Source: an uncultured bacterium
GTDB taxonomy: Bacteria; Lernaellota; Lernaellaia; Lernaellales; Lernaellaceae
Direction: 5' to 3'
NCBI GenBank assembly: GCA_964534375.1
Contig: CAZHPN010000002.1
Span: 2,276-66,275 of the forward strand
DNA: 64,000 nucleotides
Shown: positions 11,995-64,000 of the stretch, one piece after another
How the letters are laid out: each line of letters opens with the position of its first letter
Position numbering within the stretch: position 1 is the first letter of the stretch
Notes under the pieces: model-generated
Told to the model about the DNA's origin: nothing
Seen by the model: only the letters and a program-made list of their open reading frames with translations
The model's database searches: none
Translations under genes and position numbers: made by a program

Positions 11995-13368
11995 CTAATT
12001 GCCGTCGTAATGCAAAATCACCCCACTGTAGCCGACGGCGAATACGTCCGAGGCCGAGCTGCCCCAGACGCCGTACAATGACTGTGCGGACGACGCGGGG
12101 ATCGACATCTGCGACCACGCGGCGCCGTTGTATTGCCAAATCCCCAGGCCGCTGCCTCCCACGCTTCCCACGACGAACACGTCGCTTGCCGAGGCGCCCC
12201 AAACGCCGGCCAGATCCATGGAAGACATCGCGGGGACTGTCATCGCCGACCACGAGGCGCCGTCGTAATGCCAGACCGGCTGGAGATATGCGCCGTCGTA
12301 TCCGACGGCGAACACGTCCGAGGCCGAGCTGCCCCAAACGCCGGTGAATATCACCGTGTCCGTCATTTCCACGGTCATCTCCGACCACGAGGAACCGTCG
12401 TAGTTCCAGAACGATCCGGCGTTTTCAGACGCGGAATAGCCGGCGGCGATCACGTTCGAAGCGGAACTTCCCCAAACGCCATTTAACCCGACGTCCGTCC
12501 CCGGGCCGGGTGTGGCGATCGACCACGAGCTTCCATTGTATTGCAAGGCGACCGGGCCGAATTCGCCGGTCCCGTCCCAGCCGACGCCGATCACGTTCGC
12601 GGCGGAACTTCCCCAAACGGCGCCAAAATACACTTCATCGGTCGTGATGTTCCCCATCGCCGACCACGAGGAACCGTCGTAATGCACGACGGTGACGCTG
12701 TCGGTGCTCGTCTGGTAGCTGCCCACCACGTACACGTCGGAACTGGCGCTTCCCCAAACGCCAACGAACGCTGCGGGGATCCCGGTCGCCGTATAGGACC
12801 ACGAGGAACCGTCGTAATGCCCGATCTCGCCGTTGTCGCCGACCGCGAACACGTCGGAAGGCGAGCTTCCCCAAACGGCGTGCAAATCGTACGGCTGCCC
12901 CCCGGCGGCCGCCACCGACCAATTGTCATCGTCATCGTCGACCGGCGACGTGTCATTGTCGTCGTCATCGTCGACGGTGTCGTTGTCGTCATTGTCGTTG
13001 TCGTCGTCATCGTTGTCGTCGTTGTCGTCATCGTTGTCGTCATCGTTGTCGTCATCGTTGTCGTCATCGTTGTCGTTGTCGTCGTTATCGTCGTCGTCGT
13101 TGTCGTCGTCGTCGGGGGCTGTGTCGTCGTCGACTGGCGGCGACGTGTCGTTGTCATTGTCGTCGTCGTTGTCATTGTCGTCGTCATCGTCCGGCGAAGC
13201 GTCGTTGTCGTCGTCGTCCGGCGAGGCGTCGTCGTCCGGCGAAACGTCGTCGTCGACGGCATGGCCGTGACTGCTGCTGCTGGAGCCGCAGTCGCACGAT
13301 GCCGCGGCAATGACCAGCAAACCCGCCAGAACCATCAGAGCCAGGTGCAAAGCGATTTTCGACCTCAT
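11995..13368 (-). CDS. Exported lipoprotein: lipobox, ~110-aa poly-Asp/Asn low-complexity linker, then 8-bladed beta-propeller-like repeat domain
   Basis: ATG (cat at 13366-13368) behind GGAGGG. Signal ...LVIAAASC. Linker DDDVSPDDDASPDDDDND...(DDDND)n. About eight ~45-aa repeats of the form GVWGSSASDVFAVG...HYDGSSWS. Confidence 0.75.
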   Translation of the reverse strand: MRSKIALHLALMVLAGLLVIAAASCDCGSSSSSHGHAVDDDVSPDDDASPDDDDNDASPDDDDDNDNDDDNDNDTSPPVDDDTAPDDDDNDDDDNDDNDNDDDNDDDNDDDNDDDNDDNDDDDNDNDDNDTVDDDDDNDTSPVDDDDDNWSVAAAGGQPYDLHAVWGSSPSDVFAVGDNGEIGHYDGSSWSYTATGIPAAFVGVWGSASSDVYVVGSYQTSTDSVTVVHYDGSSWSAMGNITTDEVYFGAVWGSSAANVIGVGWDGTGEFGPVALQYNGSSWSIATPGPGTDVGLNGVWGSSASNVIAAGYSASENAGSFWNYDGSSWSEMTVEMTDTVIFTGVWGSSASDVFAVGYDGAYLQPVWHYDGASWSAMTVPAMSSMDLAGVWGASASDVFVVGSVGGSGLGIWQYNGAAWSQMSIPASSAQSLYGVWGSSASDVFAVGYSGVILHYDGN

Positions 13369-13666
13369 CTTCCCTCCGGTGTTAGAGTGAACAGCTCAAG
13401 TTGCGATTATTTTATCAGCAAATGTTCCAATATGTCAAGGAAAGTTGACGGAAAGCAATGGAATGGCGCCAAATTAACTGTCGTTCGCGTCTGTGTCGAC
13501 GCATTATCTCGCAAAATCGACGTCCCAGTCGGCCGACTACCTGGACGTTTCGGTCTTTCGTCGTTCGCGGGCGCGCGGTTCGAGGCGATTGGGGCGGTGG
13601 CCGATAACGGGATTTCGTCGTATGCTGCGTTTGCCGGGTCAAATTCGCTTTTCTGAGGTTGACGAG

Positions 13667-14551
13667 ATGAGGCAAAAGAACGCGGCGATTGCGTCGCCCG
13701 CGCAGAGCCGTTTCTTCACTGCACTGTGTCTTCTGGCGCTGCTCGCGGCTTGCTCCCCGATCACCTACAATCGTTATCAGCCGGCGCAAACCATGGGCGA
13801 AGGGCAATTCAAGCTGGCGGCGTCCGCGGAATTCGGCAAGGAAATGGCAGCCAACGTCCAGACGAGCCTGGCGGCCCAGATGGACCAGAAAGTGCTCGCC
13901 TGGTCGACGAGCCATCCGCTGCCGGGCGGGAGGACGCTCGGCGCCGCCGGCGTCGGACCGCCGAGTTCCGTCGGCATTTTGAATCTGCCCGCGCTCAGTG
14001 ATCCCGTGCCGCAAGCGAACGTCTATTTCGCGTACGGCCTGACGAACACGCTCGACCTCGAAGGTTCGATTTCGACCGCGCCCTACTTTCGCTTCAACGC
14101 CAAAGCGCAGGTGTGGCAATTTGGCTCGCGCGGCGCCGTCGCCGTCGCGCCGGGCGTCGGTTACTTGCCGTTCAGCGAATCCGCGAGCGGGTCCGGCGGC
14201 AGAGTCAAGGACAAATACAGCGGCTACGCGGCGACGGCGGAGCTGCCGGTGGTCGTCGGCTGGCAGTATCACGTTGTCTCGCCGTACGTGGGCGTGCTGC
14301 TCGCGTACAATCACATCGGCCTGAACTTCTCGCGCGTCGACTCCGATTTCACGCCGGCGTTCTCCGGTTTCCTGACCGCGGATTACGACCTGTTCAGCGT
14401 CGGGCCGATGGTCGGCGTGCAACTCAAATTCGGCCCGTTCATCCTGACACCGGAGCTCATCGCGCTCTACGCGCACGGGGCCGGCAGCGGTCTCGTGCTG
14501 CCGCATTCGTTTTTCCTCTCGCCGGGCCTGCAATTGGGCGGGCAATGGTAG
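13667..14551 (+). CDS. Lipoprotein, beta-barrel-like; paralog family copy 3
   Basis: ATG at 13667 behind GAGG. Lipobox LLAACSP plus PITYNRYQPAQTMGEGQFKLAAS. C-terminus SPGLQLGGQW. It is similar along its length to 9474-10286 but carries insertions. Confidence 0.65.
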   Translation: MRQKNAAIASPAQSRFFTALCLLALLAACSPITYNRYQPAQTMGEGQFKLAASAEFGKEMAANVQTSLAAQMDQKVLAWSTSHPLPGGRTLGAAGVGPPSSVGILNLPALSDPVPQANVYFAYGLTNTLDLEGSISTAPYFRFNAKAQVWQFGSRGAVAVAPGVGYLPFSESASGSGGRVKDKYSGYAATAELPVVVGWQYHVVSPYVGVLLAYNHIGLNFSRVDSDFTPAFSGFLTADYDLFSVGPMVGVQLKFGPFILTPELIALYAHGAGSGLVLPHSFFLSPGLQLGGQW

Positions 14552-14559
14552 CAAGGCGG

Positions 14560-14830
14560 AGGGCTAAAAAGCCGGGCATCTTCACCTCTCCCGCTGGGAC
14601 AGGTCGCCGAGTGCAACGAGGCGGGCGAGGGTGAATGCCGATGGGGCCGCCACCCCAGTCCTCTCTCAGGGGGAGAGGGAGCATGAACCTCTCCCTCCGG
14701 GAGAGATCGCCCGCAGGCTGGGTGAGGGCATCTTCACCTCTCCCCCTGGGAGAGGTCGCCGCGCGAAGCGCGGCGGGTGAGGGCGCTCACCCCATCCCTC
14801 TCCCAGAGCGAGAGGGAGGTTGAAAATCGA
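14560..14830. repeat. Cluster of REP-like palindromic repeats (two ~60-bp copies plus GGGAGAGG-type palindromes)
   Basis: The unit gggcatcttcacctctccc[g/c]ctggga[c/g]aggtcgccg...gcggg[c/t]gaggg[tgaa/cgct] occurs at ~14573 and ~14732. Each copy folds as ttcacctctccc / gggagaggtgaa. Between them lie cctctctcagggggagagggag and cctctccctccgggagag. The cluster sits between convergent gene ends. Confidence 0.5.
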
Positions 14831-14891
14831 CGCCGCCCCGGGGGCGGCATCGATTCCAATCACCTGTCGGTTCGGCGGCTTTTCGGTCGGT

Positions 14892-17800
14892 TCACCGGGC
14901 CCGCGGCGCGGCCTGACTGGTCTTTTTCTTGCTTCCGCCGCTACAGGCTTGCTCCTGGCATGTCGCCGGCGGGATGCAGACTTCGCAAACGGCGCCGCCG
15001 GTCCCGCAAGCGCCGGAGTCGGTTCCGAGCTGGCACGTGCCGGTGTTGTCGCAGCAGCCGTTCGGGCACGACGTGGCGTCGCACACGCATTGGAAGCTCA
15101 GGCATTCGGCGCCAGAGGCGGTGCAATTTTGGCAAACCACGCCGCCCGTGCCGCAGTTGGAGTTGTCGCCGCCAGTTTGGCAGTTGACGCCGCTGCAGCA
15201 GCCGGACGGACACGAATTGGCGTCGCAGACGCACGCGCCGCCCGAGCATTCCTGACCGCCGGCGCACGTCGTGCAGGCCGCGCCGCCCGCGCCGCAGTTG
15301 CTGGGGCTGGCGGCCATGCAGACATTGCTCGCGCAGCAGCCGGCGCACGTCCCGTCGCACGCGCACTGCTGGTTCGTGCAACTATCTCCCAAATCGTTGC
15401 AATTCTGGCACGCGCCGCCGGCCTGTCCGCAGAGAGAGGGCGCCGTGCCGGCATAGCACGTGTTCCCGCTGCAACAGCCGTTGATCGTTGCGCACGACGC
15501 TTGCGTGCAGATGCATTGCCCGCCCGAGCACGTCTGGCCGTTGGCGCACGCGATGCAGGCGCCGCCGCCGGAGCCGCACTCGGCATCCGTGACCGGATTC
15601 ACGCAGGTCGACCCGTTGCAACAACCGCTCGCGCAGGCGCTGGTGTCGCAGACGCATTGATTGCCCACGCAATCGTTGCCCGCGCTGCACGTCTGACAGG
15701 CCTGGCCGTTGGTTCCACAGGCGCTGGGGCTGCCGGCAGTCTGGCAATTGCCGGTGTTGTCGCAGCAGCCCGTCGGGCAGGAACCCGACGCCCCCGGCGT
15801 GCAGGTGCACGTGCCGAGCACGCATTCCTGACCGCTGGCGCACGCGCCGCAGATGGCGCCGCTCGCGCCGCAATACGTGGTGTTCTCATTGTCGTAGATA
15901 ATGCACGGCCCAGCCGGCGTCCGGCAACATCCCGTATTGCACGTATTCGAGTTGCAGACGCACCCGCCGGCCACGCACTGGGCGCCGATTGCGGTGCAAT
16001 TCGTGCACGCCGCGCCGGCGGTTCCGCAATCCGCGTCGGCGCCGGAGGTCACGCAATTGCCGCCGTCGCAGCAACCCGAGACCGCCGCGCACGCCGTCGC
16101 GTCGCAGACACAGGCGCCGGACGCGTTGCAGATCTGTCCGGGGGCGCAGGAGAAGCAGGCCGTGCCGCCCGTGCCGCACGAGCCGGCGCTCTCGCCGCTA
16201 TAGACCTCGCACGGTCCGAGCGGCGACACGCAACAGCTTGCGGCGCACGAGGTCGCGTTGCATACGCAGGCGCCACTTTGACATTCTAATCCGCTGTCGC
16301 ACGAGACGCAGGGGGCGCCGTCCGCGCCGCATTGCGAATTGATATTGCCCTGCTCGCACGACGCCCCGGCGCAGCAACCCGAACTGCACGTCGTGTTGTC
16401 GCAGACGCATTCGCCGGCGACGCAATGGTTGCCCGCGCTGCAGACCTGACACTGCGCGCCGCCCGTGCCGCAGGCGCTGTCCGAGGTTCCGTCCTGGTTG
16501 CATTCGGGGGCTGAACCCGGGCAGCAACCGGTGCAGGTAATCGTGTCGCAGGTGCACTCGCCGCTCACGCAATCGACGTCGGTCGCGCACGCCGAACACG
16601 TCGCGCCGCCCAGGCCGCAGGAGCCGGGGCTTTGTTGGTCGAACGTTTCGCACGGCCCGGCGAATCCGGCGACGCAGCAGCCGTTCGCGCACGAAACGCC
16701 GTCGCAAATGCACACGCCGCCGTCGCCGCACCGATATCCGGCGTTGCACGAGATGCACACGGCGCCGCCCACTCCGCAGTCGGAATTCTGGTTGCCCGGC
16801 TCGCAGGTTGTGCCGTCGCAGCACCCGGAGGTGCATGCGGTCGTGTCGCAAACGCATTGCTGCTGCGGGCTGCACTCATTGCCCTCGGGGCAGGCTTGGC
16901 AACTCGCGCCGCCTTTGCCGCAAAAAGTGCTTGTTGTGCCGTCCTGGCAGTTGTTATTGGAGTCGCAGCAGCCTTTTGGGCACGAGGTTGGGTCACAGGT
17001 GCAGACGCCGTTTGCGCATTCTTGATTGGTCAGGCAACCCGCGCAGACCGCGCCGTCGGCGCCGCACGCCGTGACGCTCTGCTGCGCGATCGGCAGGCAA
17101 TTCCCGGCGACGCCGTAGCAGCAGCCCCCGGCGCATGTCGTCGCATCGCAGGCGCAGGTCCGGTTCGTGCAGGGCACGCCGTCGGCGCAGGCGACGCACG
17201 CCGCGCCGCCGCTGCCGCAGGCCGAACTATCCTCGGTGGTCACGCACTGGTTTCCCGAGCAGCAGCCCGTCGGGCAAGCCGTGGAGTCGCACGTGCAGGA
17301 GTTTTTCACGCATTCCTGCCCCGTGGCGCAGGGCGCGCACGCGACGCCGCCTGTGCCGCAGGCCGAATTATCCCCGGCGGTCACGCACTGGTTTCCGGAA
17401 CAGCAGCCGTTCGGGCATGACGTTGCGTCGCACACGCAGACGCCGTTCACGCATTCGGCGCCAAGGGCGGTGCAATCCTGGCAGACCGCGCCGCCGAGCC
17501 CGCAGTCGTTATTGGCTTCGTCCTGGTGGCAGCTGCCGGTGCTGTCGCAACAGCCGTTGTTGGCGCCCACGCAGTGCGCGGCGCAACTTTCGCACTGATA
17601 CGTCGCCGCATTGCAGTATTCTTGCGGCGTCATCGCCGTGCAATTGACGCAGGCTGTTCCGCCGGTCCCGCAGTAGTTGCTGTCGGTCCCCGTCAGGCAT
17701 GTGGCGCCGGAACAGCAACCTGTCGGGCAGTCTGATGGATCGCAGAAGTTCACGCAGGCCCCGTTTTGGCAGACGGTTCCGCTGGCGCAATCCTGGCACG

Positions 17801-18146
17801 GTTGGCCGTCCACGCCGCAAGCCGAGTTGCTGTTTCCCGGTTGGCAGCCTTCGTCGAGGCAGCAACCCGAGCAATATTTCGAGGCATGACAGGGGGGCGG
17901 GGTCGAGTCGTCATCGTCGGCGTTGTCGTCGTCGCCCGCGCTGTCGTTGTCGTTGTCATCGTCGTCGCCCGCGCTGTCGTCGTTGTCGTCGTTGTCGTTG
18001 TCGTCGTCGTCGATCGCGGAATCGTCATTGTCGTCGTCGGCCTGGCGCTGGCCCGTCAAGGATGCGGCGCCGCTGCCGCCGCCGCAGGACGTCGCCAAAA
18101 GCACCAACAAAGTCGCCAAGAGCGTGAATAACAACGCGCGTTTCAT
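14892..18146 (-). CDS. Giant exported lipoprotein: lipobox, poly-Asp linker, ~20 tandem cysteine-rich repeats (Myxococcus-type Cys-rich repeat-like)
   Basis: ATG at 18146 (MKRALLFTLLATLLVLLATSC) behind GAAGGTGG. Linker DDDNDDSAIDDDDNDNDDNDDSAGDDDDNDND. The body repeats C-x-CD-x-T-x-C-x-x-GCC-x-G-x-x-C-x(3-7)-CG-x-GG-x-x-C-x-x-C roughly every 45 aa. Antisense ORFs in this region are artefacts of the repeat DNA. Confidence 0.75.
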   Translation of the reverse strand: MKRALLFTLLATLLVLLATSCGGGSGAASLTGQRQADDDNDDSAIDDDDNDNDDNDDSAGDDDDNDNDSAGDDDNADDDDSTPPPCHASKYCSGCCLDEGCQPGNSNSACGVDGQPCQDCASGTVCQNGACVNFCDPSDCPTGCCSGATCLTGTDSNYCGTGGTACVNCTAMTPQEYCNAATYQCESCAAHCVGANNGCCDSTGSCHQDEANNDCGLGGAVCQDCTALGAECVNGVCVCDATSCPNGCCSGNQCVTAGDNSACGTGGVACAPCATGQECVKNSCTCDSTACPTGCCSGNQCVTTEDSSACGSGGAACVACADGVPCTNRTCACDATTCAGGCCYGVAGNCLPIAQQSVTACGADGAVCAGCLTNQECANGVCTCDPTSCPKGCCDSNNNCQDGTTSTFCGKGGASCQACPEGNECSPQQQCVCDTTACTSGCCDGTTCEPGNQNSDCGVGGAVCISCNAGYRCGDGGVCICDGVSCANGCCVAGFAGPCETFDQQSPGSCGLGGATCSACATDVDCVSGECTCDTITCTGCCPGSAPECNQDGTSDSACGTGGAQCQVCSAGNHCVAGECVCDNTTCSSGCCAGASCEQGNINSQCGADGAPCVSCDSGLECQSGACVCNATSCAASCCVSPLGPCEVYSGESAGSCGTGGTACFSCAPGQICNASGACVCDATACAAVSGCCDGGNCVTSGADADCGTAGAACTNCTAIGAQCVAGGCVCNSNTCNTGCCRTPAGPCIIYDNENTTYCGASGAICGACASGQECVLGTCTCTPGASGSCPTGCCDNTGNCQTAGSPSACGTNGQACQTCSAGNDCVGNQCVCDTSACASGCCNGSTCVNPVTDAECGSGGGACIACANGQTCSGGQCICTQASCATINGCCSGNTCYAGTAPSLCGQAGGACQNCNDLGDSCTNQQCACDGTCAGCCASNVCMAASPSNCGAGGAACTTCAGGQECSGGACVCDANSCPSGCCSGVNCQTGGDNSNCGTGGVVCQNCTASGAECLSFQCVCDATSCPNGCCDNTGTCQLGTDSGACGTGGAVCEVCIPPATCQEQACSGGSKKKTSQAAPRAR

Positions 18147-18603
18147 GTGAACCACCTTCTACCGGATCAACACGGCGTGTCTGACAACTGCAAGACTTGT
18201 GCCTCGTTCGGCGACGCCTTTGGTTCTCTAATCTACCACAATTTCAAATGGTTTCAACAACGGTCTTGCGGGCGATGGCCGAATGACTGTGAAAATTTTT
18301 CACAGAACTGGTAAAACTTTTCACTATTTTCTGCTCCCGTTCGTTCGCCGGTTCCCGTTCCGGTCTCCATGGGAAGACCCCTCTTCTCGCTCCGGAAGAC
18401 AAAATCTCCGCCTCTCTCCTCCCGGCGCAAAGTGCGTTGTTTTCCTGGCCGAACGGGGCGGCCGTGGCATTTTCTCTATTGTCTCGGACCGTCGAATGGA
18501 TCAAAATAAAAACCGGACGAAGGGCGTCTGGCGGGCGGAGCGGCGCCTGGAACGGACGCTCGAAATCAACAACTCGGCGACGAGCGACGATAAGGGCGGC
18601 GAC

Positions 18604-19737
18604 ATGACGGAGCGAATCCTGCGATGCCCACGGTGCGGCAAGGCGACGCCCATCGCCGGAGGCCGCTGCCAGTTTTGCGGCTTGGCGGTGTCGCTGGCGC
18701 CCCGCGCCAGGCGGCGGGACGCCCCCGTTGGACGGCGCGGCGGCGGCCAAATCGACGTCGGCGTCGATCGCGTCGAACGGGAGTTTGCCGGCGTGAGTTT
18801 CGCGCCCGCCAAGCGCGGCGCCGCCGGCGCCGGCACGCAACGATACGACGTCGCCGATTTGCGTCCGCGCGCCGCGGGCCGTGCCGGGAAAGCGAACGGC
18901 GCAGCCGCGGCGCCAGGGATCGACAGCGGCCGCTACGACGCCAACGATGGCGGGCAAGTCGGCGCCGAGCCAAAGGGCGGCCGGGTGGAAGTCGGCGCGC
19001 TCAGCAGCATGCTGATGGATCCAACCGAGAATCCGCACGAGAACGAGTTCGACAAACGCGGTCTCGAGACTGCGACCGACGGCAAATTGGACGTCGCGCA
19101 GCGATTGTACGGCGAAACCGACACGGCTCGCGACAACCTGAGTTTCCTCGCGCCGCCGCCGGCGGAGGCGCCGGACGCGCCGGAACCCGCGACGTTCGTG
19201 CCCAAGCGTTTCCCGGGCGCGTCGTCGGCCGACGCGCACAACAGCCACGCCGCCACGGATGAGCGCCGGCGCTATCTGCTGACGCGCGTCCTGCCGCTGT
19301 TCGTCGCGTTGCTCCTCGTGGGCTTTGTCGGCCGCCGCTTCGTCAACGGCCCGATCGCGCTGGCCGATGTTTACAAAGTGTTGTTTGCCGACGACCACGG
19401 CCGGAAGGTGACGTGTCAGGCGACGTTCTCGTCGAACCCGGAGGACCGTCTGGCGGTCCACGGCATGTTCGAGTGCAAACTCTACGAAAACGACTTTTCG
19501 ACCGATCGCGTGGACGAACCGCAGGCGCTCAAACTTATTATCGGCAACGGCGCCGTCGCTTTCGCGGGCCGGTACGACGCCGACGGCATCAAACTGCAAC
19601 TGGGCGCCTTCGAGGCCGCCGACTCGCGAGCCGTGCGCCTGACCGGGCGCTTCGTCGGCGACGCGTCGCACATCGTCGGCCAAATCGAGAACGACCTGGG
19701 CCAACGCGCCAAAGTCGAAATGGAGAAAAAACTTTAG
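18604..19737 (+). CDS. Zinc-ribbon membrane protein, hypothetical
   Basis: ATG at 18604 behind AAGGGCGG. The N-terminus has CPRCGK...CQFCG (a C4 zinc ribbon), then a long disordered Gly/Ala/Asp-rich region, one TM helix (LLTRVLPLFVALLLVGFVG), and a ~150-aa extracytoplasmic domain. An alternative ATG lies at 18496. Confidence 0.5.
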   Translation: MTERILRCPRCGKATPIAGGRCQFCGLAVSLAPRARRRDAPVGRRGGGQIDVGVDRVEREFAGVSFAPAKRGAAGAGTQRYDVADLRPRAAGRAGKANGAAAAPGIDSGRYDANDGGQVGAEPKGGRVEVGALSSMLMDPTENPHENEFDKRGLETATDGKLDVAQRLYGETDTARDNLSFLAPPPAEAPDAPEPATFVPKRFPGASSADAHNSHAATDERRRYLLTRVLPLFVALLLVGFVGRRFVNGPIALADVYKVLFADDHGRKVTCQATFSSNPEDRLAVHGMFECKLYENDFSTDRVDEPQALKLIIGNGAVAFAGRYDADGIKLQLGAFEAADSRAVRLTGRFVGDASHIVGQIENDLGQRAKVEMEKKL

Positions 19738-19832
19738 CGGCCCGCGCGGGCGGCGACCGTTGGCCGCCGTCCGACGAAATGCCGGCTCCGGATGGCCGCG
19801 GCGCCGCGTTTCCGCCTTGCCAAGCCCGCTTT

Positions 19833-19843
19833 CGTGTTACAAT
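19833..19843 (+). promoter_or_regulatory. Conserved promoter-like box TTTCGTG-T-TACAAT (extended -10 type) upstream of paralog 1
   Basis: tttcgtgttacaatatt with TACAAT at 19838-19843, 50 nt upstream of ATG 19888. An identical motif with identical spacing precedes paralog 2. Confidence 0.45.
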
Positions 19844-19887
19844 ATTTTCTCGGCCGGCAACCGAACGACACAAGGCGTCACTGTCCG

Positions 19888-21855
19888 ATGTTGACCTTCG
19901 ACCTTTGGGAAAAAATCCCCCGTTTGAACGGCGACGTGAATTATCTCGAACTTTCGCGCACCTTGAGCGAACCGGAAGTGCTGATTCTCTCTCGCGTCAA
20001 CGGCCGGCTGCCGCTGGGCGAGATCGTCTCCAGCCTGCGCTACGAACGCGATTACCTCGCGCGCATCGTGGCGCGGTTGACGCGGCTGCACGCGTTGCTG
20101 TTCGACGATCCGCGCATCGCCGAGGAAATAACGGCCGAAATCGTCGATTTTCGCGGTGATTTCGCCCGGAGCGAAACGCGGGCGTCGCGTCCGCGAGGCG
20201 TCCGCGAACCGACCGCGCCCGACCCGCAGGAAGCGCCAGCGGCGGCTTGGGAACCGGAATGGGAGGCGCCGGCGGGCGAGCCGTCGACGGAGCCGGCGCC
20301 CGCGCCGGCGAGCGAGCCGGCGCCGGCGGCGCCGGAGCGATTCGCGGAATCGGGCAATTGGGACGTCGATTCGTTTTTCGCGCTGATCAATCGGCTGTAC
20401 GTGGAACGGCGCACGGGCCTCCTGCGCGTTTTTCGCGATCGGCGCACATACAAGACTTTCTATTTGGAGCGTGGGCGGATCGTCAATATCGCCTCGATGC
20501 CGTTCTCCGTCGCCGAATGCCTGGGCCGCGTCATTCAGCGGGCGGGCCTGATCGACCAGGCGAAGGTCATTGACTCGCTGCTCGCCGCCAAACGGACCGG
20601 CCAGCGTCAGGGCGAGGAACTGGTGGCGATGGGCGCGATCGACGGCGAGATCCTCTTCGAAATGCTGCGCGTGCAGATGGAGGTCAAGGCGACCGAGATC
20701 ATGGACTGGGCCCTGGGCGACTGGTCCTTCGAGGAAGCCGCGTCGCTGCCGGCCAGCCTGTCGCGCATCGACGTTTCCATGCCGCGGCTGCTGTTCAGCC
20801 TGGCTTGGAAGCGCTATCCCCACGGCCGCGTGCCGATGGAGTTGAAAAGCCGGCAGAACCTGTACATCGGCAAGCGCGTGCCGCCGACGTACACGCTGGA
20901 CGATTTCCATTTCGACGACGCGATGAAGAAGTTCTGCGGCATCGCCCTGGAACGGGACAACACGGTCAAACGCTTGTTCCTCGTCACGAATCTGAAGGCC
21001 GAAAAAACCTACAAGGTGACGTGGATTCTGCATCTGCTCGGCATTCTGGATTTCTTCGACGAGCCGCTCGAGAAACGCAACGCCCGCCGGATCGCCGAGC
21101 TCAGCAATCGCCTGCGCGAATTGGAGCACGGTTCGCCCTTTGACGGGTTGGGCGTCGCATGGACCGCGGATTCCAAAATGGTCCAGAATACGTACGTCCG
21201 GGCGGCGGCCGAGATGGACCATGCGATCGAGAACAGCGACGGGCCGGAGCGCCGTTTCGCGGAACAGATTCGCGAGCATCTCGACCGGGTTTATGAAACC
21301 ATCAAGACGCGCGAAGGCCGGCGAATCAGCCGCGAGAAGTTTCTCGAGGCGCCCGCGATTGCGGCGGGGGCCGAGGCGCGGCGGCGCGCCGGCGAAGAAT
21401 TTCTGTTCGGCGACGAGAATCCGAAGGCGGCGATCCCGGAATTCGAGGCGGCCATCGAAGTGATCGACAACCACGGCGAATACCTCGCCGAACTGGGCCT
21501 GGCGCGGTTCCAAGTCGAATACGCGGCGAACGGACCCGGCGTGGAAGACGCCCGCCGACTGATTCGCCGGGGGATCGCCGCCAGCCCGGAATCCGACGTC
21601 GTGCGCCTGTGCGAAGCGCTGATGTACAAAGAAGAGTACGAATTGGCCAAGGCGTTGGCGTCGCTCGCCCGCGCGCGGCAACTCAACCCGAACAATCGCC
21701 TCGCCGGCCTGCTGATCGAGGAGATCAACGCCGGTCGGCGGTCGGCGGCGCACGAGAACGCCGTGCGGGATTTTCTCGATCGCGACGCGACCCCTGCGCG
21801 AAAAACCGGGGGGGCCGCGCGCGGCAAACGCCCGGCGGACGGTTCGCCGAGTTAG
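19888..21855 (+). CDS. DUF4388 (PATAN-like) domain protein with degenerate J-domain and C-terminal helical/TPR-like region; paralog 1
   Basis: ATG at 19888. N-terminal domain, Pro/Ala/Glu linker, then a DUF4388-like segment GNWDVDSFFALINRLYVERRTGLLRV...YLERGRIVNIAS...ECLGRVIQRAGLI. J-like segment FDGLGVAWTADSKMVQNTYVRAAAEMDHAIENSDG, where HPD is replaced by HAI. Confidence 0.7.
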   Translation: MLTFDLWEKIPRLNGDVNYLELSRTLSEPEVLILSRVNGRLPLGEIVSSLRYERDYLARIVARLTRLHALLFDDPRIAEEITAEIVDFRGDFARSETRASRPRGVREPTAPDPQEAPAAAWEPEWEAPAGEPSTEPAPAPASEPAPAAPERFAESGNWDVDSFFALINRLYVERRTGLLRVFRDRRTYKTFYLERGRIVNIASMPFSVAECLGRVIQRAGLIDQAKVIDSLLAAKRTGQRQGEELVAMGAIDGEILFEMLRVQMEVKATEIMDWALGDWSFEEAASLPASLSRIDVSMPRLLFSLAWKRYPHGRVPMELKSRQNLYIGKRVPPTYTLDDFHFDDAMKKFCGIALERDNTVKRLFLVTNLKAEKTYKVTWILHLLGILDFFDEPLEKRNARRIAELSNRLRELEHGSPFDGLGVAWTADSKMVQNTYVRAAAEMDHAIENSDGPERRFAEQIREHLDRVYETIKTREGRRISREKFLEAPAIAAGAEARRRAGEEFLFGDENPKAAIPEFEAAIEVIDNHGEYLAELGLARFQVEYAANGPGVEDARRLIRRGIAASPESDVVRLCEALMYKEEYELAKALASLARARQLNPNNRLAGLLIEEINAGRRSAAHENAVRDFLDRDATPARKTGGAARGKRPADGSPS

Positions 21856-21912
21856 CGCGGCGCATTCGGCGTCGCCCCGCGCGGCGCGGCGGCGCTTGGC
21901 CGAAGAGTGTTT

Positions 21913-21923
21913 CGTGCTACAAT
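21913..21923 (+). promoter_or_regulatory. Conserved promoter-like box TTTCGTG-C-TACAAT upstream of paralog 2
   Basis: gtttcgtgctacaatagtg with TACAAT at 21918-21923, 50 nt upstream of ATG 21968. Confidence 0.45.
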
Positions 21924-21967
21924 AGTGCGCTCGCCGGCGAACAACTTAGACGAGGCGCGGTTCGACT

Positions 21968-23980
21968 ATGCTGAGCTTCGACCTGTGGGAAAAAATCCCA
22001 AAATTAAACGGCGAACTGGATTACCTGGAGTTCTCGCGCACCTTGAGCGAGCCGGAGGTGATGATTCTGTCGCGCGTGAACGGCAGCAGTTCGCTCGGCG
22101 AAATTGTCACGGGCTTGCGTTACGATCGCGACCACCTGGTGCGGCTAGTCGCCCGCCTGGCGAACCGGCAGGCGCTGCTGTTCGACGATCCGCTCGTCGC
22201 CAGCGAACTCGCGACCGAAATCGCCGATCTTCGCGTCGATTTTACCGGCGCCCGCAAGCGAACGGCGCGGCCCCGCGTCGAACGGAAACAGACCGCGCCG
22301 GAAGCGGAGGCGGCGGAGCCGGACGCGGACCGGGCGACGGAACCGGCGGCGAATCGGGAGCCGGCGGGGCCGGCGGCGCCCGCGGCCGCGGCGGAGTGGA
22401 CCGAGCCGGCGCCGGCGCCGCCGGTCGAACCGGATAAATCCGCGGACGCGGCCATCGAGCCGGCCGCGCAGCCGCCGACGGCGGAGCGGTACGCGGAATC
22501 AGGCGAATGGGAGATCGATTCGTTTTTCTCGTTGGTCAATCGTTTGCACGGGGAGCGTCGCAGCGGCATTCTACGCGTTCACCGCGACGCCCGCACGTGC
22601 AAGGCCATTTATTTCGACCTCGGCTCCCTGGTTAATATCAGCTCGACGCCGTTCTCGGCGGCGGAGTGTCTGGGCCGCTTGATCGAACGCGCGGGCTACA
22701 TCGACCAGAAGAAGGTCGTCGAGTCGCTGGTGGCCGCCAAGGGCTCCGGACGGCGCCAGGGCGAAGAATTGGTGGCGATGGGCGCGATCCGCCGCGATCT
22801 GCTGGGCGCGATGCTGAGCGTGCAGGTGGAATACAAAGCCGCCGAGATTCTGGAATGGGGCCGGGGCTTCTGGACGTTCGAAGAGGCCTCGTCGTTGTTC
22901 GACCGCGTGTCGCGCATCGAAACGTCGGTTCCCCGGCTGTTGTTCAATTTGGTCTGGAAACGATATCCGGCCGCCCGCCTCGCCGACCAACTGCGGCAGC
23001 GCGGCGAAATGTACGTCGGCAAGACCGAGGCGCCGATCTATGAACTGGACGAATTCGGGTTCGGGGCGGCCCTGCGCAAGTTCGTGACGATCGCGATCGA
23101 GAAGGACAGTCCGCTGAAACGCGTGCTGGTCGTCAGCAATCTCAAGCCGGAACAAACCCAGCGCATGTTGTGGGCGTTGTACCTGACCGGCATGATGGGC
23201 TTCTACGACGATTCGCGCGAAGACCGCGGCGCCGCCCTCATCGTCGATCTCAATAACGAATTGAAGACGGTCGAGCGCGAGCCGTATTTCGACATCCTGC
23301 ACATTCATTGGACGGCCGACACGGCCATGGTCGAGAAATCGTATGCGCGCTTGTCGGCCGAAATGGAGCACGCCATCGCAACGACCGACGGCCTGGCGCG
23401 GCAGCTCAAAGAACGGATTTACGACTACGTCAAGACCGCCTACGAGGCCCTGCGGACCAAGGAAGGCCGGCGAGCCTACCGGCTGCGAAGATTCGACGAG
23501 GATTTCGTCATCTTCGGCGCCGAGATCTTGCGCCAAAAGGGCGAGAGCTACCTGTTCACCAAGGAAGATCCCGTGCAGGCCATTCAGGAGTTCGAGGGCG
23601 CCATCGAGGTCAATGATCGCAATGGCGAATACTACGCCGAACTGGGCCTGGCGCTGTTCCTCCGCGATTACGGCGGCCGCGGGCGAGGCGTCGATGAGGG
23701 CCGGCAATTGCTGCGCAAGGGCGTGGCCATGGCCTCGCAGTCGGAGGTCGTGCATCTGTGCCTGGCGATGATGCACCGCACCGAACGCCAGTACGCGAAA
23801 GCGTTGTCGTCATTGGAGCGCGTGCTGCAAATCAACCCGCAAAATCGCTTCGCCCGCATTGTGGCGAACGAAATCCGGAGCGGCGAAAAATCGGCCGAGC
23901 ACGAGGCGGCCGTCAAGCAATTCGTCGAACGGCATGCCGCCGTTCAACAAAAGAAGTCCACGGAAGCCGCGCCCCAATAA
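21968..23980 (+). CDS. DUF4388 (PATAN-like) domain protein with degenerate J-domain and helical/TPR-like region; paralog 2
   Basis: Same architecture as 19888-21855 (MLSFDLWEKIPKLNGELDYLEFSRTLSEPEV...). J-like segment YFDILHIHWTADTAMVEKSYARLSAEMEHAIATTDG. Confidence 0.7.
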   Translation: MLSFDLWEKIPKLNGELDYLEFSRTLSEPEVMILSRVNGSSSLGEIVTGLRYDRDHLVRLVARLANRQALLFDDPLVASELATEIADLRVDFTGARKRTARPRVERKQTAPEAEAAEPDADRATEPAANREPAGPAAPAAAAEWTEPAPAPPVEPDKSADAAIEPAAQPPTAERYAESGEWEIDSFFSLVNRLHGERRSGILRVHRDARTCKAIYFDLGSLVNISSTPFSAAECLGRLIERAGYIDQKKVVESLVAAKGSGRRQGEELVAMGAIRRDLLGAMLSVQVEYKAAEILEWGRGFWTFEEASSLFDRVSRIETSVPRLLFNLVWKRYPAARLADQLRQRGEMYVGKTEAPIYELDEFGFGAALRKFVTIAIEKDSPLKRVLVVSNLKPEQTQRMLWALYLTGMMGFYDDSREDRGAALIVDLNNELKTVEREPYFDILHIHWTADTAMVEKSYARLSAEMEHAIATTDGLARQLKERIYDYVKTAYEALRTKEGRRAYRLRRFDEDFVIFGAEILRQKGESYLFTKEDPVQAIQEFEGAIEVNDRNGEYYAELGLALFLRDYGGRGRGVDEGRQLLRKGVAMASQSEVVHLCLAMMHRTERQYAKALSSLERVLQINPQNRFARIVANEIRSGEKSAEHEAAVKQFVERHAAVQQKKSTEAAPQ

Positions 23981-24018
23981 CGGCCGAGCGCCCGCGGCGC
24001 GGCCAGGGAGGAACCCCG

Positions 24019-24684
24019 ATGTTCGGATTTGCACGTTGCCGTTCGGCGGCGGCGCTGTTGGCCGCGCTGCTCGCGTTGACCGCCGGCGCCGCCGCGTGTG
24101 CGATCGACCAGCGCATTCGCGAGAAGAGCCAGGACCTGTCGGGCGATCTGATGGAAAAAGCGGTCGATTTCAACCGCATGATCGCCTGGCAGTATTTCGA
24201 CGCCGCGGCCGCCGTCGTCGTGCCGCAATCGCGCGGCAATTTCTTGATGACGGCCGAATCTTTCAACCAACGGGTTCACATCGAAAGTTTCACGGTGGTG
24301 CTGACGGAAGTCAGCGAACATCCGTTTACGCGCCTGCGCGGCCAGGTTCCCGAAATCCAGCACGAAAAGAAACCGCAGATCGAGCCGCCGCCGACGGAAG
24401 ACGAGGTCGCGGCGGCGGCGCGCAAGGCGCAGGCGACGCCGGAGCCGTCCAAGGCGAAGACGATGCCGAAAAACTGGTACGGCCTGGTGCTGGTTCGCTA
24501 CGTCAACCTGTCGATCCTGCCGCATACGCAGGTGCGGTCGCCGCTGCTCCGGCAATACTGGTACTGGAACGACACGGACGAGACCTGGATGGTCGATCCC
24601 GAAATCGAGCAACTGCTCGACCTGGACAAGTCGGAGGCCGCGCCGCCGCTCGGCGAGAAGCCGCTCGCGCCGTCGCCGCACTGA
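24019..24684 (+). CDS. Exported protein/lipoprotein, hypothetical
   Basis: ATG at 24019 behind AGGGAGGA. Signal peptide MFGFARCRSAAALLAALLALTAGAAAC. Mature part about 195 aa. Confidence 0.55.
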   Translation: MFGFARCRSAAALLAALLALTAGAAACAIDQRIREKSQDLSGDLMEKAVDFNRMIAWQYFDAAAAVVVPQSRGNFLMTAESFNQRVHIESFTVVLTEVSEHPFTRLRGQVPEIQHEKKPQIEPPPTEDEVAAAARKAQATPEPSKAKTMPKNWYGLVLVRYVNLSILPHTQVRSPLLRQYWYWNDTDETWMVDPEIEQLLDLDKSEAAPPLGEKPLAPSPH

Positions 24685-25070
24685 AAAACGACGGCGACAA
24701 AACGCACTTGCAATCCGTTAACGGACGTTGGCGCCGACGCGCCATGGATATCCGTTTGGAAAAGAACTGTGCGGACCGCCTGCCGCGCCGGCGGACGACG
24801 CTGCCGGCGCAGCGACGAATCGCCCTTGTTTCCGACGGTTGCGCGCGGGGCGGCGCGTTTCGCTCTCTGCCGATAACTCGCGCGAACGGCGCGGAAAGCG
24901 GACCATTCGAAACCGAATGACAGAAAAGATCATCCAATAATAAACGACGGCTCGCCGGCGCGCCAATTTCCCTCTTTTTTTATCATTTTTCTTCCTTTTT
25001 GCGGAGTTTCTGGTATACTGCCTTAGGTCGGCGAATCGGCTTCTGTGAGGACAGAACGAGGGGAAGGTCG

Positions 25071-27608
25071 ATGCGCCGCGCCACCACGATGATTCTGATC
25101 CTCTTCCTCTGGACGCCGCTGTTTGTCGCGGCGTGCAGCCCCGCACCCGAACACCACCATCACCATCCGGTCGATGACGACGAGTCGCCCATGGACGACG
25201 ACACGTCGCCGAGCGACGACGACACCTCGCCCGCCGACGACGATGCGTCGCCGAGCGACGATGACGCATCGCCCGCCGACGACGATGCGTCGCCGAGCGA
25301 TGACGACCTGTCGCCCGCGGACGATGACGCCTCGCCGACCGACGACGATGCATCGCCCGCGGACGATGACGATGACGCGTCGCCGACGGATGACGATGCG
25401 TCGCCGAGCGATGACGACACCGCGCCTGCCGATGACGACACGGCGCCTGCCGACGACGACACCGCGCCGAGCGATGACGACACCTTGCCGGGCAACGGCG
25501 GCGATGACGACGACGATGACGACACGACGCCCGGCAACGGCGGCGATGACGACGACGACGACGACACGACGCCCGGCAATAGCGGCGATGACGACGACGA
25601 CGACACGACGCCGGGCAACGGCGGCGATGACGACGACGACTCCGCGCCGACCGATGACGACGCCTCGCCTGCCGACGACGATGACAACGACGACATGACG
25701 GTCGACGTGCAATACGTGGCCGGCGGCACCTATTCCGGCGCCGCATTGACGCTGGACGCCGCGGGCAACGCCACGGTCATCTCCGGCAAATCCCGCGATC
25801 TGCTCGCCTACACGGAAAGCGGCGGCAATTTCAGCGAGCAACTGGCGGCGTTCGGCGTTTACGCCAACCCATCGGCGACGCTCGGGCCCGATGGCGCCCA
25901 GCACGTGGCCTTCTACGATTGGATCAACAAGAACCTGCGTTATGCCACCAACGCCGGCGGCGAATGGACGGATGTCCTGGTGGACGGAACGGGCGACGTC
26001 GGCCATTACAGCGGCATCGCGCTGGACGCGGGCGGCGCCGTCCACATCGCGTACACGGTGCAAACCGCCGGCGTGCCCAGCGGCGTGCGCCACGCGACGA
26101 ACGCGAGCGGCGCCTGGCAGACGGACGAGATCGCGGACGGCTCGCAAATCGGCGACTATCCGCAAATCGCGATCGACGCCAACGGCCTGCGGTATGTCAC
26201 GTACAACGACGACGGCAACGTGCAGGTTTGCCTCGCGAATTGGAACGGGGCGGCCTGGAGCAACTTCGCACTGCCGTATTCGACGCCGGACGGTCGGGCG
26301 AGCGCCGTGGCCGTCGGGAGCGATGGAACGCTGAATGTTCTTTACCATCAAGTCAGCGGCGGCATGGTGTACGCCACCGGCACGTACAGCAGCCTCGACT
26401 ACAACCTGATCAACAGCGTCGACAACGTCGCCGATACGCTGGCGATGGCGCTCGACGGCAACGGCGTGGCGCATATTACGTACGCCATCGGCACGAACGA
26501 AGTAGGCTACGGCAACAACTCCGGGGGGACATGGAGCCTGCAAACCATCGGCGCCGGTTACCCCGTGTTCATCGCCGCCAATTCGGTGAATGACGTGGCG
26601 ATCTCGCTCGCGCGGATCGGCGTTGCGCGCAAGCAAGGCGCGACGTGGACAGAGACATACTTCGACTACGGCTTCACGGCCGCGGCGCCGGCCATGCGCA
26701 ACGATGCGCAGGCCCGCCAACATTTCGTTTACCTGGAAAACGAAACCGCGACGCTGCGTCATGCGACGGACGCGACCGGCGGCTGGACCTTCGAGTCGAT
26801 CGCGACCCCGATCGGAACCGGCATGCTTGACAGCGGCCTGGTCGTCGACGCGTCCGGAGGCTTGCACGTCTCATTTTACAACGGCGCGAATCAAAACCTG
26901 AATTACGCGACCAATGCGGGCGGGACGTGGGCGACCAGTGTCATCGACGGCGGTCCGACTGTCGGCCAGGCGAGCGCCATGGCCAGGGACGCCGCCGGCG
27001 TGTTGCACGTGAGTTATTCGGACGACGGAAACGGTGCTCTGAAGTATGCAACCAACGCTGGCGGCGCCTGGCAAACGACGATGGTCGACAGCAGCGGCGC
27101 GATCGGGGCGTCGGCAATCGCCGTCGACGGCGCCGGCACGGCGTACATCGCCTATAGCAATCAGACCGTCGGCGCGATCGAACTGGCGACCGGCGGGATC
27201 GGCGGCTTCTCCGTCCAGACCGTCGATGCCGCCGGCGGCGCCTCGGTGTCGCTCGTGCTCGACGCCAACGGCCAGCCGCAGTTGGCGTACGTCGGCGCCG
27301 GGCTGCGCCACGCTGCGTTGGTCGGTTCGACCTGGCAGGTTGACACGGTCGACCCCGCAGGGACGGCCGCCGGAACCGCGATCGCGACCTGGGGCAACCT
27401 GGGGCTGGCGATCGCCTATCAAAACGGCGCCGCGCTCAGCCTAGCGCTCGGCCGGCCCGGCAATTGGTGGCTGTTGCCGGTCGATACGCTCGACAATGTC
27501 GGCCAACAACCGTCGCTGGTCGCCGCGCCCGACGGCTCCCGCTACGACGTCGGCTATCTCGGCCAGGGCGGCGTCTGGCTGGCGACGGTGACGTTCACGG
27601 CGAACTAG
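25071..27608 (+). CDS. Exported lipoprotein: lipobox, His5 tract, ~200-aa (DDDxSP)n acidic linker, beta-propeller-like repeat domain
   Basis: ATG at 25071 behind GAGGGGAAGG. A TATACT box lies at 25014-25019. Signal ...LFVAACSP. Linker HHHHHPVDDDESPMDDDTSPSDDDTSPADDDASP... (about 25 units), then DDDDDDDTTPGNGG x4. The body repeats ~45 aa of the form YATNAGGxWxTxxVD...G...S[IL]A[LV]D..G..H[IV][AS]Y. Confidence 0.75.
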   Translation: MRRATTMILILFLWTPLFVAACSPAPEHHHHHPVDDDESPMDDDTSPSDDDTSPADDDASPSDDDASPADDDASPSDDDLSPADDDASPTDDDASPADDDDDASPTDDDASPSDDDTAPADDDTAPADDDTAPSDDDTLPGNGGDDDDDDDTTPGNGGDDDDDDDTTPGNSGDDDDDDTTPGNGGDDDDDSAPTDDDASPADDDDNDDMTVDVQYVAGGTYSGAALTLDAAGNATVISGKSRDLLAYTESGGNFSEQLAAFGVYANPSATLGPDGAQHVAFYDWINKNLRYATNAGGEWTDVLVDGTGDVGHYSGIALDAGGAVHIAYTVQTAGVPSGVRHATNASGAWQTDEIADGSQIGDYPQIAIDANGLRYVTYNDDGNVQVCLANWNGAAWSNFALPYSTPDGRASAVAVGSDGTLNVLYHQVSGGMVYATGTYSSLDYNLINSVDNVADTLAMALDGNGVAHITYAIGTNEVGYGNNSGGTWSLQTIGAGYPVFIAANSVNDVAISLARIGVARKQGATWTETYFDYGFTAAAPAMRNDAQARQHFVYLENETATLRHATDATGGWTFESIATPIGTGMLDSGLVVDASGGLHVSFYNGANQNLNYATNAGGTWATSVIDGGPTVGQASAMARDAAGVLHVSYSDDGNGALKYATNAGGAWQTTMVDSSGAIGASAIAVDGAGTAYIAYSNQTVGAIELATGGIGGFSVQTVDAAGGASVSLVLDANGQPQLAYVGAGLRHAALVGSTWQVDTVDPAGTAAGTAIATWGNLGLAIAYQNGAALSLALGRPGNWWLLPVDTLDNVGQQPSLVAAPDGSRYDVGYLGQGGVWLATVTFTAN

Positions 27609-41985: not shown

Positions 41986-42228
41986 ATGCGCGCATTGTAT
42001 CTCGTGCTGAGTTTGGCGGTCCTGGCGGCCTTGCTGGCGATTCCCGCGATCGCGGCCGTGAACAACAATCCGGCCGGCGGGTCCGAAGACCATGTGCTGC
42101 AGTCCGACGACGACTCGGCGCCCAGCGACGACGATACGTCGCCCGGCGTCGACGACGACAGCTCCAATCCGCTCCAAGCGCGTACGACGTACGCCGACGG
42201 AAACATCGACGGTTGCGGCTGCTACTAG
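41986..42228 (+). CDS. Small secreted acidic peptide (signal peptide + DDDSAPSDDDTSPGVDDDSS + C-terminal DGCGCY)
   Basis: ATG at 41986 behind AAGGAGAAGG. Signal peptide MRALYLVLSLAVLAALLAIPAIAA. The product is 80 aa. It shares the DDDxSP motif with the large lipoproteins. A dedicated promoter lies upstream and a terminator downstream. Confidence 0.55.
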   Translation: MRALYLVLSLAVLAALLAIPAIAAVNNNPAGGSEDHVLQSDDDSAPSDDDTSPGVDDDSSNPLQARTTYADGNIDGCGCY

Positions 42229-63719: not shown

Positions 63720-64000
63720 TCGCTGTTCCGGATGGGCGTGACGTTCGACCCCGCGAGGGCAATCATAAATAGGATGGGTGGGCTGGATCAACCGCCGGTA
63801 GCGCCAGCCGATCGGCTGCGCCAGAACGTTCGACGTCGACCGGCAACATTGGATCAGCAAAAGCTCGTGGGGCACGTCGCGGGGCGAAAAAGGGATCTTC
63901 CGCATGCGTTGGGGCGCCACGGAGATCGGTCTGTTCACGATCCCGCCGCACTAGCCGCCCCCGGCCGACGGTGATGACCACGACGACGACGACAACGACG

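Follow-up and report, generated by a model that had tools for sequence, protein, structure and literature searches.

Three genes in a 64-kb stretch of DNA from an uncultured bacterium of the phylum Lernaellota (contig CAZHPN010000002.1, positions 2,276 to 66,275; 64% GC; the whole 64,000-nucleotide stretch is called the window here) encode proteins, termed A, B and C, in which a signal peptide ending in a lipobox Cys, a long Asp-rich linker and a repeat domain follow one another. An initial annotation of the window had described this shared architecture, and it is present in all three open reading frames (ORFs), in arrangement and in position. Judged by sequence, the shared part of A, B and C is a portable cassette typical of the lineage, and the three proteins appear to form neither a paralogous family nor a three-gene system, since their folded domains are unrelated, the genes lying between them are unrelated, and the same tract is found on unrelated cargo. 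The poly-Asp tract probably serves as a disordered polyanionic stalk between the anchor and the exported domain. The features of the three genes are as follows.

11995–13368, minus strand: protein A, 457 amino acids
13294–13368, minus strand: predicted signal peptide and lipobox of A, MRSKIALHLALMVLAGLLVIAAAS followed by C (Cys25); AGLLVIAAASC fits the lipobox pattern
12871–13293, minus strand: linker of A, a Ser/His spacer (DCGSSSSSHGHAV) and then DDDxSP and DDDN repeats
11995–12870 (stop codon included), minus strand: seven-repeat β-propeller-type domain of A, motif VWG(S/A)(S/A)xx(D/N)V...G......YDGSSW
14892–18146, minus strand: protein B, 1,084 amino acids counted from the ATG
18084–18146, minus strand: predicted signal peptide and lipobox of B, MKRALLFTLLATLLVLLATS followed by C (Cys21); ATLLVLLATSC fits the lipobox pattern
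17892–18083, minus strand: linker of B, a Gly/Ser spacer and then a tract of the DDDNDD type
14892–17891 (stop codon included), minus strand: Cys-rich rod of B, ~20 repeats, with a basic tail (SKKKTSQAAPRAR) at the end
25071–27608, plus strand: protein C, 845 amino acids, identical to public protein P0124 and with the same start
25071–25136, plus strand: predicted signal peptide and lipobox of C, MRRATTMILILFLWTPLFVAA followed by C (Cys22); FLWTPLFVAAC fits the lipobox pattern
25137–25694, plus strand: linker of C, which opens with SPAPEHHHHHPV and continues in Asp repeat units
25695–27608 (stop codon included), plus strand: predicted tandem β-propeller of C, 14 blades (2 × 7), from an AlphaFold2 model, Foldseek and a profile match

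The N-termini were compared with a lipoprotein rule of the PROSITE PS51257 type, comprising a Lys or Arg in the n-region, an uncharged h-region, a Cys at position 15–35 and the lipobox pattern [LIVMFWSTAG]2-[LIVMFYSTAGCQ]-[AGS]-C. A, B and C each have a Lys or Arg within the first seven residues, an uncharged h-region and a lipobox that the pattern recognizes, and are predicted to be exported lipoproteins; both their lipidation and their cellular location are inferred. The start of A is the same in an ENA gene call, and the ATG of B is likewise the start used by an ENA gene call, a GTG three codons 5′ of it being judged less likely. The G+C content at third codon positions is 0.81–0.85 in the three genes, matching the housekeeping genes of the window.

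Each linker spans the region from the lipobox Cys to the folded domain, which begins at residue ~167 in A, ~86 in B and 209 in C. The linker of A has 141 residues, of which 71 are Asp (50%) and 13% are Asn, giving a net charge of −71; that of B has about 65 residues with 42% Asp and a net charge of −26; and that of C has 186 residues with 81 Asp (44%), 12% Pro and a net charge of −83, and contains 15 DDDx(S/T)P units, or about 20 of the form DDDx(S/T)Px by another count, and four D(6–7)TTPGNGG units. The tracts had been described as 50–200 residues long and almost pure Asp. The lengths (65–186 residues) agree with this, whereas the purity was overstated at 42–50% Asp; the enrichment is nevertheless extreme, with 16–23 Asp in the densest 30-residue window of the linkers against 4.7% Asp in the housekeeping genes of the window (binomial tail 1e-12 to 1e-22). 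Halophile-type global acidity was ruled out as the main explanation by the same housekeeping value. The first Asp run after the lipobox Cys starts at +14 in A, +16 in B and +13 in C, and A has in addition a single Asp at +2.

Tandem Repeats Finder reports degenerate in-frame repeats at 12924–13254, 17907–18039 and 25172–25694, with periods of 6, 21, 27, 42 and 63 nt and matches of 65–92%. All periods are multiples of 3, so a change in linker length would keep the reading frame, and phase-variable contingency repeats were ruled out on the grounds of these periods and of matches of only 65–92%. The linker codons are dominated by GAC, with the same bias as the housekeeping genes and the rest of the genome. 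The view that the linkers are DNA-level tandem repeats of varying length is thereby borne out, since linkers of orthologues range from 17 to 178 amino acids (see below). The repeat units are DDDxSPx and DDDN, and regular spacing of the DxDxDG type is absent. A family of Ca-binding repeats was rejected as the main explanation for the linkers because no thrombospondin type 3, RTX or EF-hand model in Pfam or NCBIfam matches full-length A, B or C.

Two features are seen within or at the edge of the linkers. His residues precede the first DDD in C (HHHHHPVDDD, 25137–25172) and A (HGHAVDDD), and the relatives P0125, P0126, P0128, P0299, L033, L086 and L097 have His at the same junction, as HHPAIDDD or IHHPLDDD; this recurrence could reflect a conserved motif at the junction, or a site for metal or for processing. 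A small Cys-rich module (ACCxxxxCxxxxxxxCxxxxGxWxxGxxCxxxxC) sits within the poly-Asp linker of P0041 and P0128, which are relatives of A and C.

The folded domains that the linkers carry are unrelated, comprising two different propeller families and a rod of Cys-rich repeats. The assignment of repeat domains made earlier, propeller-like in two members and about 20 Cys-rich repeats in the third, is supported by motif counts and by AlphaFold2 models. The domain of A has more than 3,000 homologues, a few of which are named WD40-, YVTN- or BNR-like; most carry other N-terminal modules (Big_2, PKD, CAP), and a lipobox with poly-Asp occurs in only 4 of the top 120. Scans against Pfam and NCBIfam brought no meaningful match for any of the three proteins, that of A with Pfam giving only a weak one to the Rax2 propeller, and sequence searches of the PDB gave no match for either A or B. 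The propeller of A (~290 amino acids, 11998–12870) contains no Lys and no Arg; Lys and Arg together make up 1–1.7% of its poly-Asp-bearing relatives, against a family median of 4%.

In B, 17 clear units of 44–52 amino acids with exactly 10 Cys each, together with about three less regular N-terminal ones, follow the pattern CxCDxxxCxxGCCxxxxC...CGxGGxxCxxCxxGxxC, and the protein has 201 Cys overall. It has 12 Lys and Arg in 1,000 residues, several of them in the C-terminal SKKK...RAR tail. Its 254 homologues are mostly lipoproteins of Myxococcota. The AlphaFold2 model of B (predicted local distance difference test, pLDDT, 93.2) has no significant fold match in the PDB. At E ≤ 0.1, B has no match in Pfam and only a spurious EbpS match in NCBIfam. 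The repeat is Cys-rich, tandem and extracytoplasmic, like the Myxococcus cysteine-rich repeat (TIGR02232) and the surface repeats of Myxococcota, and TIGR02232 had been proposed as a model to try; the unit of B, with its 44–52 residues and 10 Cys, differs from it, and no repeat family in NCBIfam, TIGR-numbered models included, matches at that threshold.

For C, an AlphaFold2 model built with eight orthologues (pLDDT 91.7; predicted template modelling score 0.81) is all-β, with 56 strands forming 14 blades. Foldseek relates this model to generic double seven-bladed propellers (Aip1, Utp21, DDB1, GH74) at 7–17% identity, and the profile of C matches the designed Pizza propellers (E = 1e-13), so that C is predicted with confidence to adopt a β-propeller fold. 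C has no Pfam match at E ≤ 0.1, including to the hidden Markov model (HMM) of BNR_4 (PF15892), which is carried only by distant homologues of 25–30% identity. The propeller of A and the 10-Cys repeat of B belong to large unnamed families, and C to a smaller unnamed one with 385 matches, whose close orthologues lie mainly in FEN-1099-like metagenome-assembled genomes (MAGs).

These close orthologues of C (34–53% identity) come from MAGs labeled only as unclassified "bacterium" and from "Deltaproteobacteria bacterium isolate fen_1099", the MAG that gave the phylum FEN-1099 (Candidatus Lernaellota) its name (PMC9324843). Every full-length orthologue, truncated ones being left out of the count, has a lipobox and a poly-Asp tract (P0125–P0138; MAG loci L001–L005 and L007). 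Their linkers are 17–178 amino acids long and 35–75% Asp, with varying interrupting residues (SP, TG, VN, N), and the 186-residue linker of C itself is the longest of the set. The propeller, in contrast, has a mean column identity of 58% and ~90 invariant columns. This drift of linker length and sequence beside a conserved propeller is the pattern to be expected of a spacer and not of a specific binding site. Farther from C, its relatives in Firestonebacteria, Nitrospira and archaea are without the tract.

The same tract occurs on many other proteins. In the flanks of the MAG loci, the cassette precedes a purple-acid-phosphatase-type metallophosphoesterase, a PKD protein and an Lcl_C protein. 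A scan of JGI metagenomes for DNA encoding (DDDx[S/T]Px)2DDD gave at least 120 stretches, of which 80 loci were examined. Among the matches listed, 86 ORFs bear the tract: about 50 have it directly behind a lipobox Cys, ~16 at the extreme C-terminus and ~5 internally, a few are cut by contig ends, and in two the tract precedes a Cys motif followed by a transmembrane (TM) helix and an Arg cluster. The tract thus lies almost always between a terminal Cys motif and a folded domain. A Pfam scan of 65 tract-bearing ORFs found at least 24 families, among them GH92, GH43, melibiase, peptidases M14 and C11, phosphodiesterase, histidine phosphatase, purple-acid phosphatase, pectin acetylesterase, arylsulfotransferase, FGE-sulfatase, Lcl_C, PKD and LDL-receptor class A. 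One 85-kb metagenome contig has at least five tract-bearing ORFs. A phmmer search of 1.84 billion representative sequences with the signal peptide and linker of C gave 356 matches, two-thirds of which are other low-complexity proteins, and is a poor census because of composition filtering.

The initial annotation had described a family of lipoproteins, and A, B and C might be paralogues or a dedicated system whose members act together, given that three poly-Asp genes stand within 16 kb and two of them are on the same strand. This is very unlikely. The folded domains are unrelated, and the genes between A, B and C lie on both strands and are unrelated as well (a DUF899 protein, two DUF4388 proteins and unknown lipoproteins); proteins of the A or B type do not accompany the orthologues of C found in other MAGs; the same linker is found on at least 24 Pfam families; and the local density of poly-Asp genes simply equals the general frequency of the cassette, as on the 85-kb contig. 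The notion of a family or system is therefore abandoned. The initial annotation had also named, as a finding that would refute its reading, ordinary membership of a characterized family in which such a linker is routine, and at the level of the lineage the linker is routine: dozens of unrelated exo-enzymes and binding domains carry it.

About eight credible lipoproteins are encoded in the window, and three of them have a poly-Asp tract. Those without it include a DegP-like protease (36936–38099), an FGE/SH3 protein and two unknown lipoproteins. The lipoprotein encoded at 33621–34490 on the plus strand has a Pro/Ala-rich linker (PPPAPTKAPAPAPAPIAPPPATS) in place of poly-Asp, so that the organism has at least two linker styles. 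Upstream of C on the plus strand, tandem paralogues at 19792–21855 and 21968–23980 (687 and 670 amino acids) contain a DUF4388/PatA_N domain, and both have a Pro/Ala/Glu-rich low-complexity insert. In L003 (fen_1099) and L007, too, the C orthologue has a DUF4388 gene no more than ~8 kb away, which amounts to weak synteny.

The tracts themselves are genuine and hard to assemble, as is evident from the identity of the C linker across assemblies and from the breakage of contigs within the tracts. The region of C is contained in JGI contig Ga0455670_0001167 (124 kb) and in an ENA MEGAHIT contig with 4 and 2 substitutions, respectively, over ~20 kb, and its 558-nt linker region has no insertion or deletion and the same length in three assemblies. 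Two ENA contigs overlap at their ends across the linker region of B, and both agree with the window. For A, one ENA contig shows no difference through residue ~140 of the protein, which takes in ~115 residues of the linker; the final ~10 linker residues, at the end of that contig, differ and lead into a longer continuation, which may represent either a longer allele (length polymorphism) or an assembly-graph branch among similar repeats. Short-read contigs (MEGAHIT k141, Logan) start or end within poly-Asp repeats at 12875–12952, 17869–17966 and 63878–63997, and ENA contigs stop at 63878 and 63997, at the D-rich edge of the window. In one Cys repeat of B, the JGI and ENA assemblies share the same two dinucleotide substitutions relative to the window (16219–16220 and 16238–16239), which suggests strain variation or exchange between repeats.

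The tracts could also be products of misassembly or repeat collapse, or might not be translated as Asp, and the initial annotation had allowed for this. Contigs break in the linker of B and in the tract at the window edge, one ENA contig end continues the linker of A differently, the JGI gene caller missed B, and A is not on record. An explanation of this kind is nonetheless extremely improbable: the linker region of C has one length in three assemblies, the frame runs unbroken from the signal peptide through poly-Asp into conserved domains in all three genes, as it does in dozens of orthologues sampled elsewhere, and the repeats are degenerate (65–92% matches) rather than collapsed identical copies. 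The JGI annotation calls ~10 small plus-strand ORFs in place of B, and an exact look-up of A in a public protein collection gave no gene call. B is nevertheless a real gene: it has a lipoprotein signal, a period of 10 Cys that is strictly kept, and homologues with E-values as low as 5e-53. Annotation is missing high-GC repeat genes of this kind.

The initial annotation had placed a fragment of another D-rich coding stretch at the window edge. The sequence there does read as D-rich in one frame; that frame, however, opens directly after an in-frame TAG, and it has neither a start codon nor a signal peptide within the window. On the opposite strand, one frame of the same segment would close a gene with an Arg-rich tail (RRCRRRRGHHRRPGAASAAGS-stop).

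63953–64000, plus strand: D-rich reading PPPADGDDHDDDDND

The proposal that the tract is a long flexible stalk, already made in the initial annotation, remains the best reading and is probably correct. The cassette would begin with a signal peptide for Sec and signal peptidase II, including the lipobox Cys; next would come a short Ser/Gly(/His) spacer and then a long low-complexity poly-Asp region broken by Pro or Asn. The Cys would be lipidated, and charge repulsion and the regular prolines would hold the chain extended and away from the anionic membrane surface. The folded domain (a propeller, a Cys-rich rod or, in relatives, a hydrolase) would be displayed some 10–20 nm from the anchor. Linker length would drift freely through in-frame gain and loss of repeats, and binding of divalent cations would be an unavoidable side property that may tune the extension of the stalk. 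This reading is favored by a terminal tract that adjoins a Cys motif at either end of the protein, is indifferent to cargo, and drifts while the domain is conserved; in addition, the lipoproteins of the window that look periplasmic or housekeeping are without the tract. Disorder is expected from the composition of the linkers (D, N, S, P, G), and a spacing function is proposed. In Sec translocation under a membrane potential, acidic segments are favored and basic ones disfavored.

Several points weigh against this reading or limit it. A plain spacer needs no 40–70% Asp, and the window itself encodes a lipoprotein with a Pro/Ala-rich linker; the charge of Asp therefore probably does something more, for instance as a sorting signal, in binding cations or in repelling surfaces. 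In E. coli, an Asp at +2, as in A, would retain the protein in the inner membrane. The assignment of the window to FEN-1099/Lernaellota in this analysis comes only from orthologues of 37–42% identity and from weak synteny.

A comparable arrangement is known in E. coli, in which Lol sorts about half of the outer-membrane lipoproteins only if their disordered N-terminal linker is long enough, whatever its sequence (El Rayes et al., 2021, bioRxiv 10.1101/2021.01.05.425367). As in RcsF, NlpD and Pal, an unstructured segment is predicted here to start right behind the lipidated Cys and to precede the folded domain, and the importance of length and disorder rather than sequence in E. coli fits the drift seen among orthologues. 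The E. coli linkers have a few tens of residues and a mixed composition, whereas those considered here reach 186 amino acids, are 42–50% Asp (up to 75% in relatives) and are encoded by in-frame DNA repeats. The Pro/Thr/Ser-rich linkers of secreted glycoside hydrolases and PEP-CTERM proteins are similarly low in complexity, punctuated by prolines, variable in length and carried by exo-enzymes; they are neutral and often glycosylated, whereas every repeat unit here has at least three Asp.

Two explanations address why Asp is used, and both may coexist with a role as a stalk. In the first, the acidic tract or its first residues are read by a surface-export pathway like that of the lipoprotein export signal (LES) and mark the protein for the outer face of the outer membrane. 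In the LES of Bacteroidota, surface exposure takes no more than two to four acidic residues placed at +3 to +6 relative to the lipidated Cys, as in C-x-K-(D/E)2 of Capnocytophaga canimorsus and SDDDD of Bacteroides fragilis (Lauber et al., 2016, PMC5080379). Acidic residues likewise follow the lipobox Cys of hydrolases and binding proteins here, the cargo (hydrolases, propellers, PKD domains) suits the cell surface, and distant relatives have Asp runs at +2 to +6. Among 47 non-redundant N-terminal examples from metagenomes, the first DDD lies 0–5 residues from the Cys in 15 (for example CPPDDDDD and CGDDDDDD, with CDCSDSDDDD among other runs near the Cys), as it does in many distant orthologues of C, and 11–20 residues away in 25. 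The latter class, to which A and C belong and which B resembles, has a spacer rich in Ser, Gly and Ala that typically closes in (P/A)-A-(V/A/I). The LES is strictly position-dependent, whereas the Asp runs of A, B and C begin only at +13 to +16 and extend over 50–170 residues where about five would do (linkers, 65–186); none of the three proteins has an acidic stretch at about +3 to +6 with K, Q or S before it, a feature seen only among relatives that are more distant. C-terminal tracts exist as well, for which N-terminal signaling is impossible, and the lineage is not Bacteroidota. A sorting signal is thus an unlikely explanation of the tract.

In the second explanation, binding of cations or minerals is the primary selected function, and the tracts form a cell-bound ion-exchange layer or act as adhesins, similar to teichoic acids or to Asp-rich proteins of biomineralization. 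Poly-Asp segments of osteopontin, Asprich and calsequestrin bind Ca2+ and mineral, and a literature on osteopontin poly-Asp and hydroxyapatite exists. The linkers share with the eukaryotic proteins (osteopontin, Asprich/Aspein and the tail of calsequestrin) long poly-Asp runs that are physically able to bind Ca2+ or mineral; they differ in having no homology to them and in being bacterial, predicted to be lipid-anchored, and attached to enzymes and propellers. With −26 to −83 charges per chain, counter-ion condensation is physically unavoidable. The whole mature parts of A, B and C are acidic, the propeller of A being without Lys or Arg, and the linker of C opens with a His5 run, of which close relatives retain H-(H/Q)-P before the first DDD. 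On the other side, Pfam and NCBIfam scans reveal no recognized Ca-binding motif, linker length and sequence are not conserved among the orthologues of C, many ordinary hydrolases with no obvious need for metal storage carry the tract, and no metal-transport or mineral-related genes adjoin A, B or C. Cation binding as the primary function is improbable, to about the same degree as a sorting signal.

The stalk would be used at both ends of proteins, as the C-terminal tracts indicate. Among the matches listed, about 16 independent ORFs (L025, L034, L037, L043, L046, L053, L065, L070, L073, L082, L084, L087, L092, L094, L100 and L002:631–2136) have a C-terminal poly-Asp tract that closes in (G/S)GCG(C/S/K/N) and is followed at once by a stop codon, each of the three kinds being represented. 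Ordinary signal peptides are present in most of these proteins; one has a lipobox as well, and one has Cys repeats of the B type. In none of the GCGC-ending ORFs is there a TM helix downstream in any frame or an Arg cluster. A miniature of this architecture appears to be encoded in the window itself.

41986–42228, plus strand: small exported ORF, 80 amino acids, with a type-I-like signal peptide, three DDDxxP units and the C-terminus DGCGCY

GCGC is a frequent signature of MYXO-CTERM tails, in which a TM helix and an Arg cluster come after it (Haft, 2023, bioRxiv 10.1101/2023.06.07.544157; PMC11980579). The poly-Asp proteins resemble those of MYXO-CTERM (TIGR03901) in having this signature at the end of a C-terminal tether, and two relatives (P0414 and L090) have the full tripartite tail of Cys motif, TM helix and basic cluster; P0414 alone scores as high as 19 bits against TIGR03901, for which the cut-off is 20 bits. 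The ~16 ORFs, as well as that at 41986–42228, differ in stopping right after GCG(C/S/K/N). An identity with MYXO-CTERM was rejected for these ends, which have the signature, lack the TM helix and the Arg-rich cluster, and are not matched by TIGR03901. The bare GCGC end may be a new C-terminal anchor or processing motif. A more far-reaching and rather doubtful interpretation is that poly-Asp with a terminal Cys motif, either an N-terminal lipobox or a bare GCGC-COOH, constitutes a phylum-wide two-ended surface-display system of FEN-1099/Lernaellota-like bacteria, in which polyanionic stalks would carry exo-enzymes and binding proteins, dozens to hundreds of them in each genome, and would together form a cation-binding protein brush, a functional analogue of teichoic acids; GCGC-COOH would then be a new C-terminal anchor, like the MYXO-CTERM signature without its transmembrane part.

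Nothing relevant on poly-Asp or aspartate-rich linkers of lipoproteins emerged from full-text searches, and the description of Lernaellota (PMC9324843) makes no mention of lipoproteins or acidic linkers. The earlier statement that the combination is not a described system holds insofar as no published description was found; it is not, however, a system of lipobox, poly-Asp and propeller or Cys repeats. What is present is apparently an undescribed tethering module, conceptually familiar and routine in an uncultured lineage, which differs from known tethers in its length, composition, repeat-based evolution and use at both protein ends.

For annotation and assembly, the tracts matter because contigs break in them and because the 1,084-residue gene B is absent from the JGI annotation. 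As a simple signature in sequence, the cassette can also serve to pick out the proteins that probably make up the surface proteome of the lineage; it indicates a possible new C-terminal anchor motif and reveals no new molecular machine. The phylum Lernaellota has been inferred to degrade polymers (PMC9324843). If the stalk reading is correct, this uncultured phylum shows its exo-enzymes on unusually long, extremely acidic, lipid-anchored stalks, which would bear on how the lipoprotein sorting machinery copes with tracts of −80 charges, on the distance from the membrane at which the enzymes act, and on the binding of cations by cell surfaces in peat and sediment.

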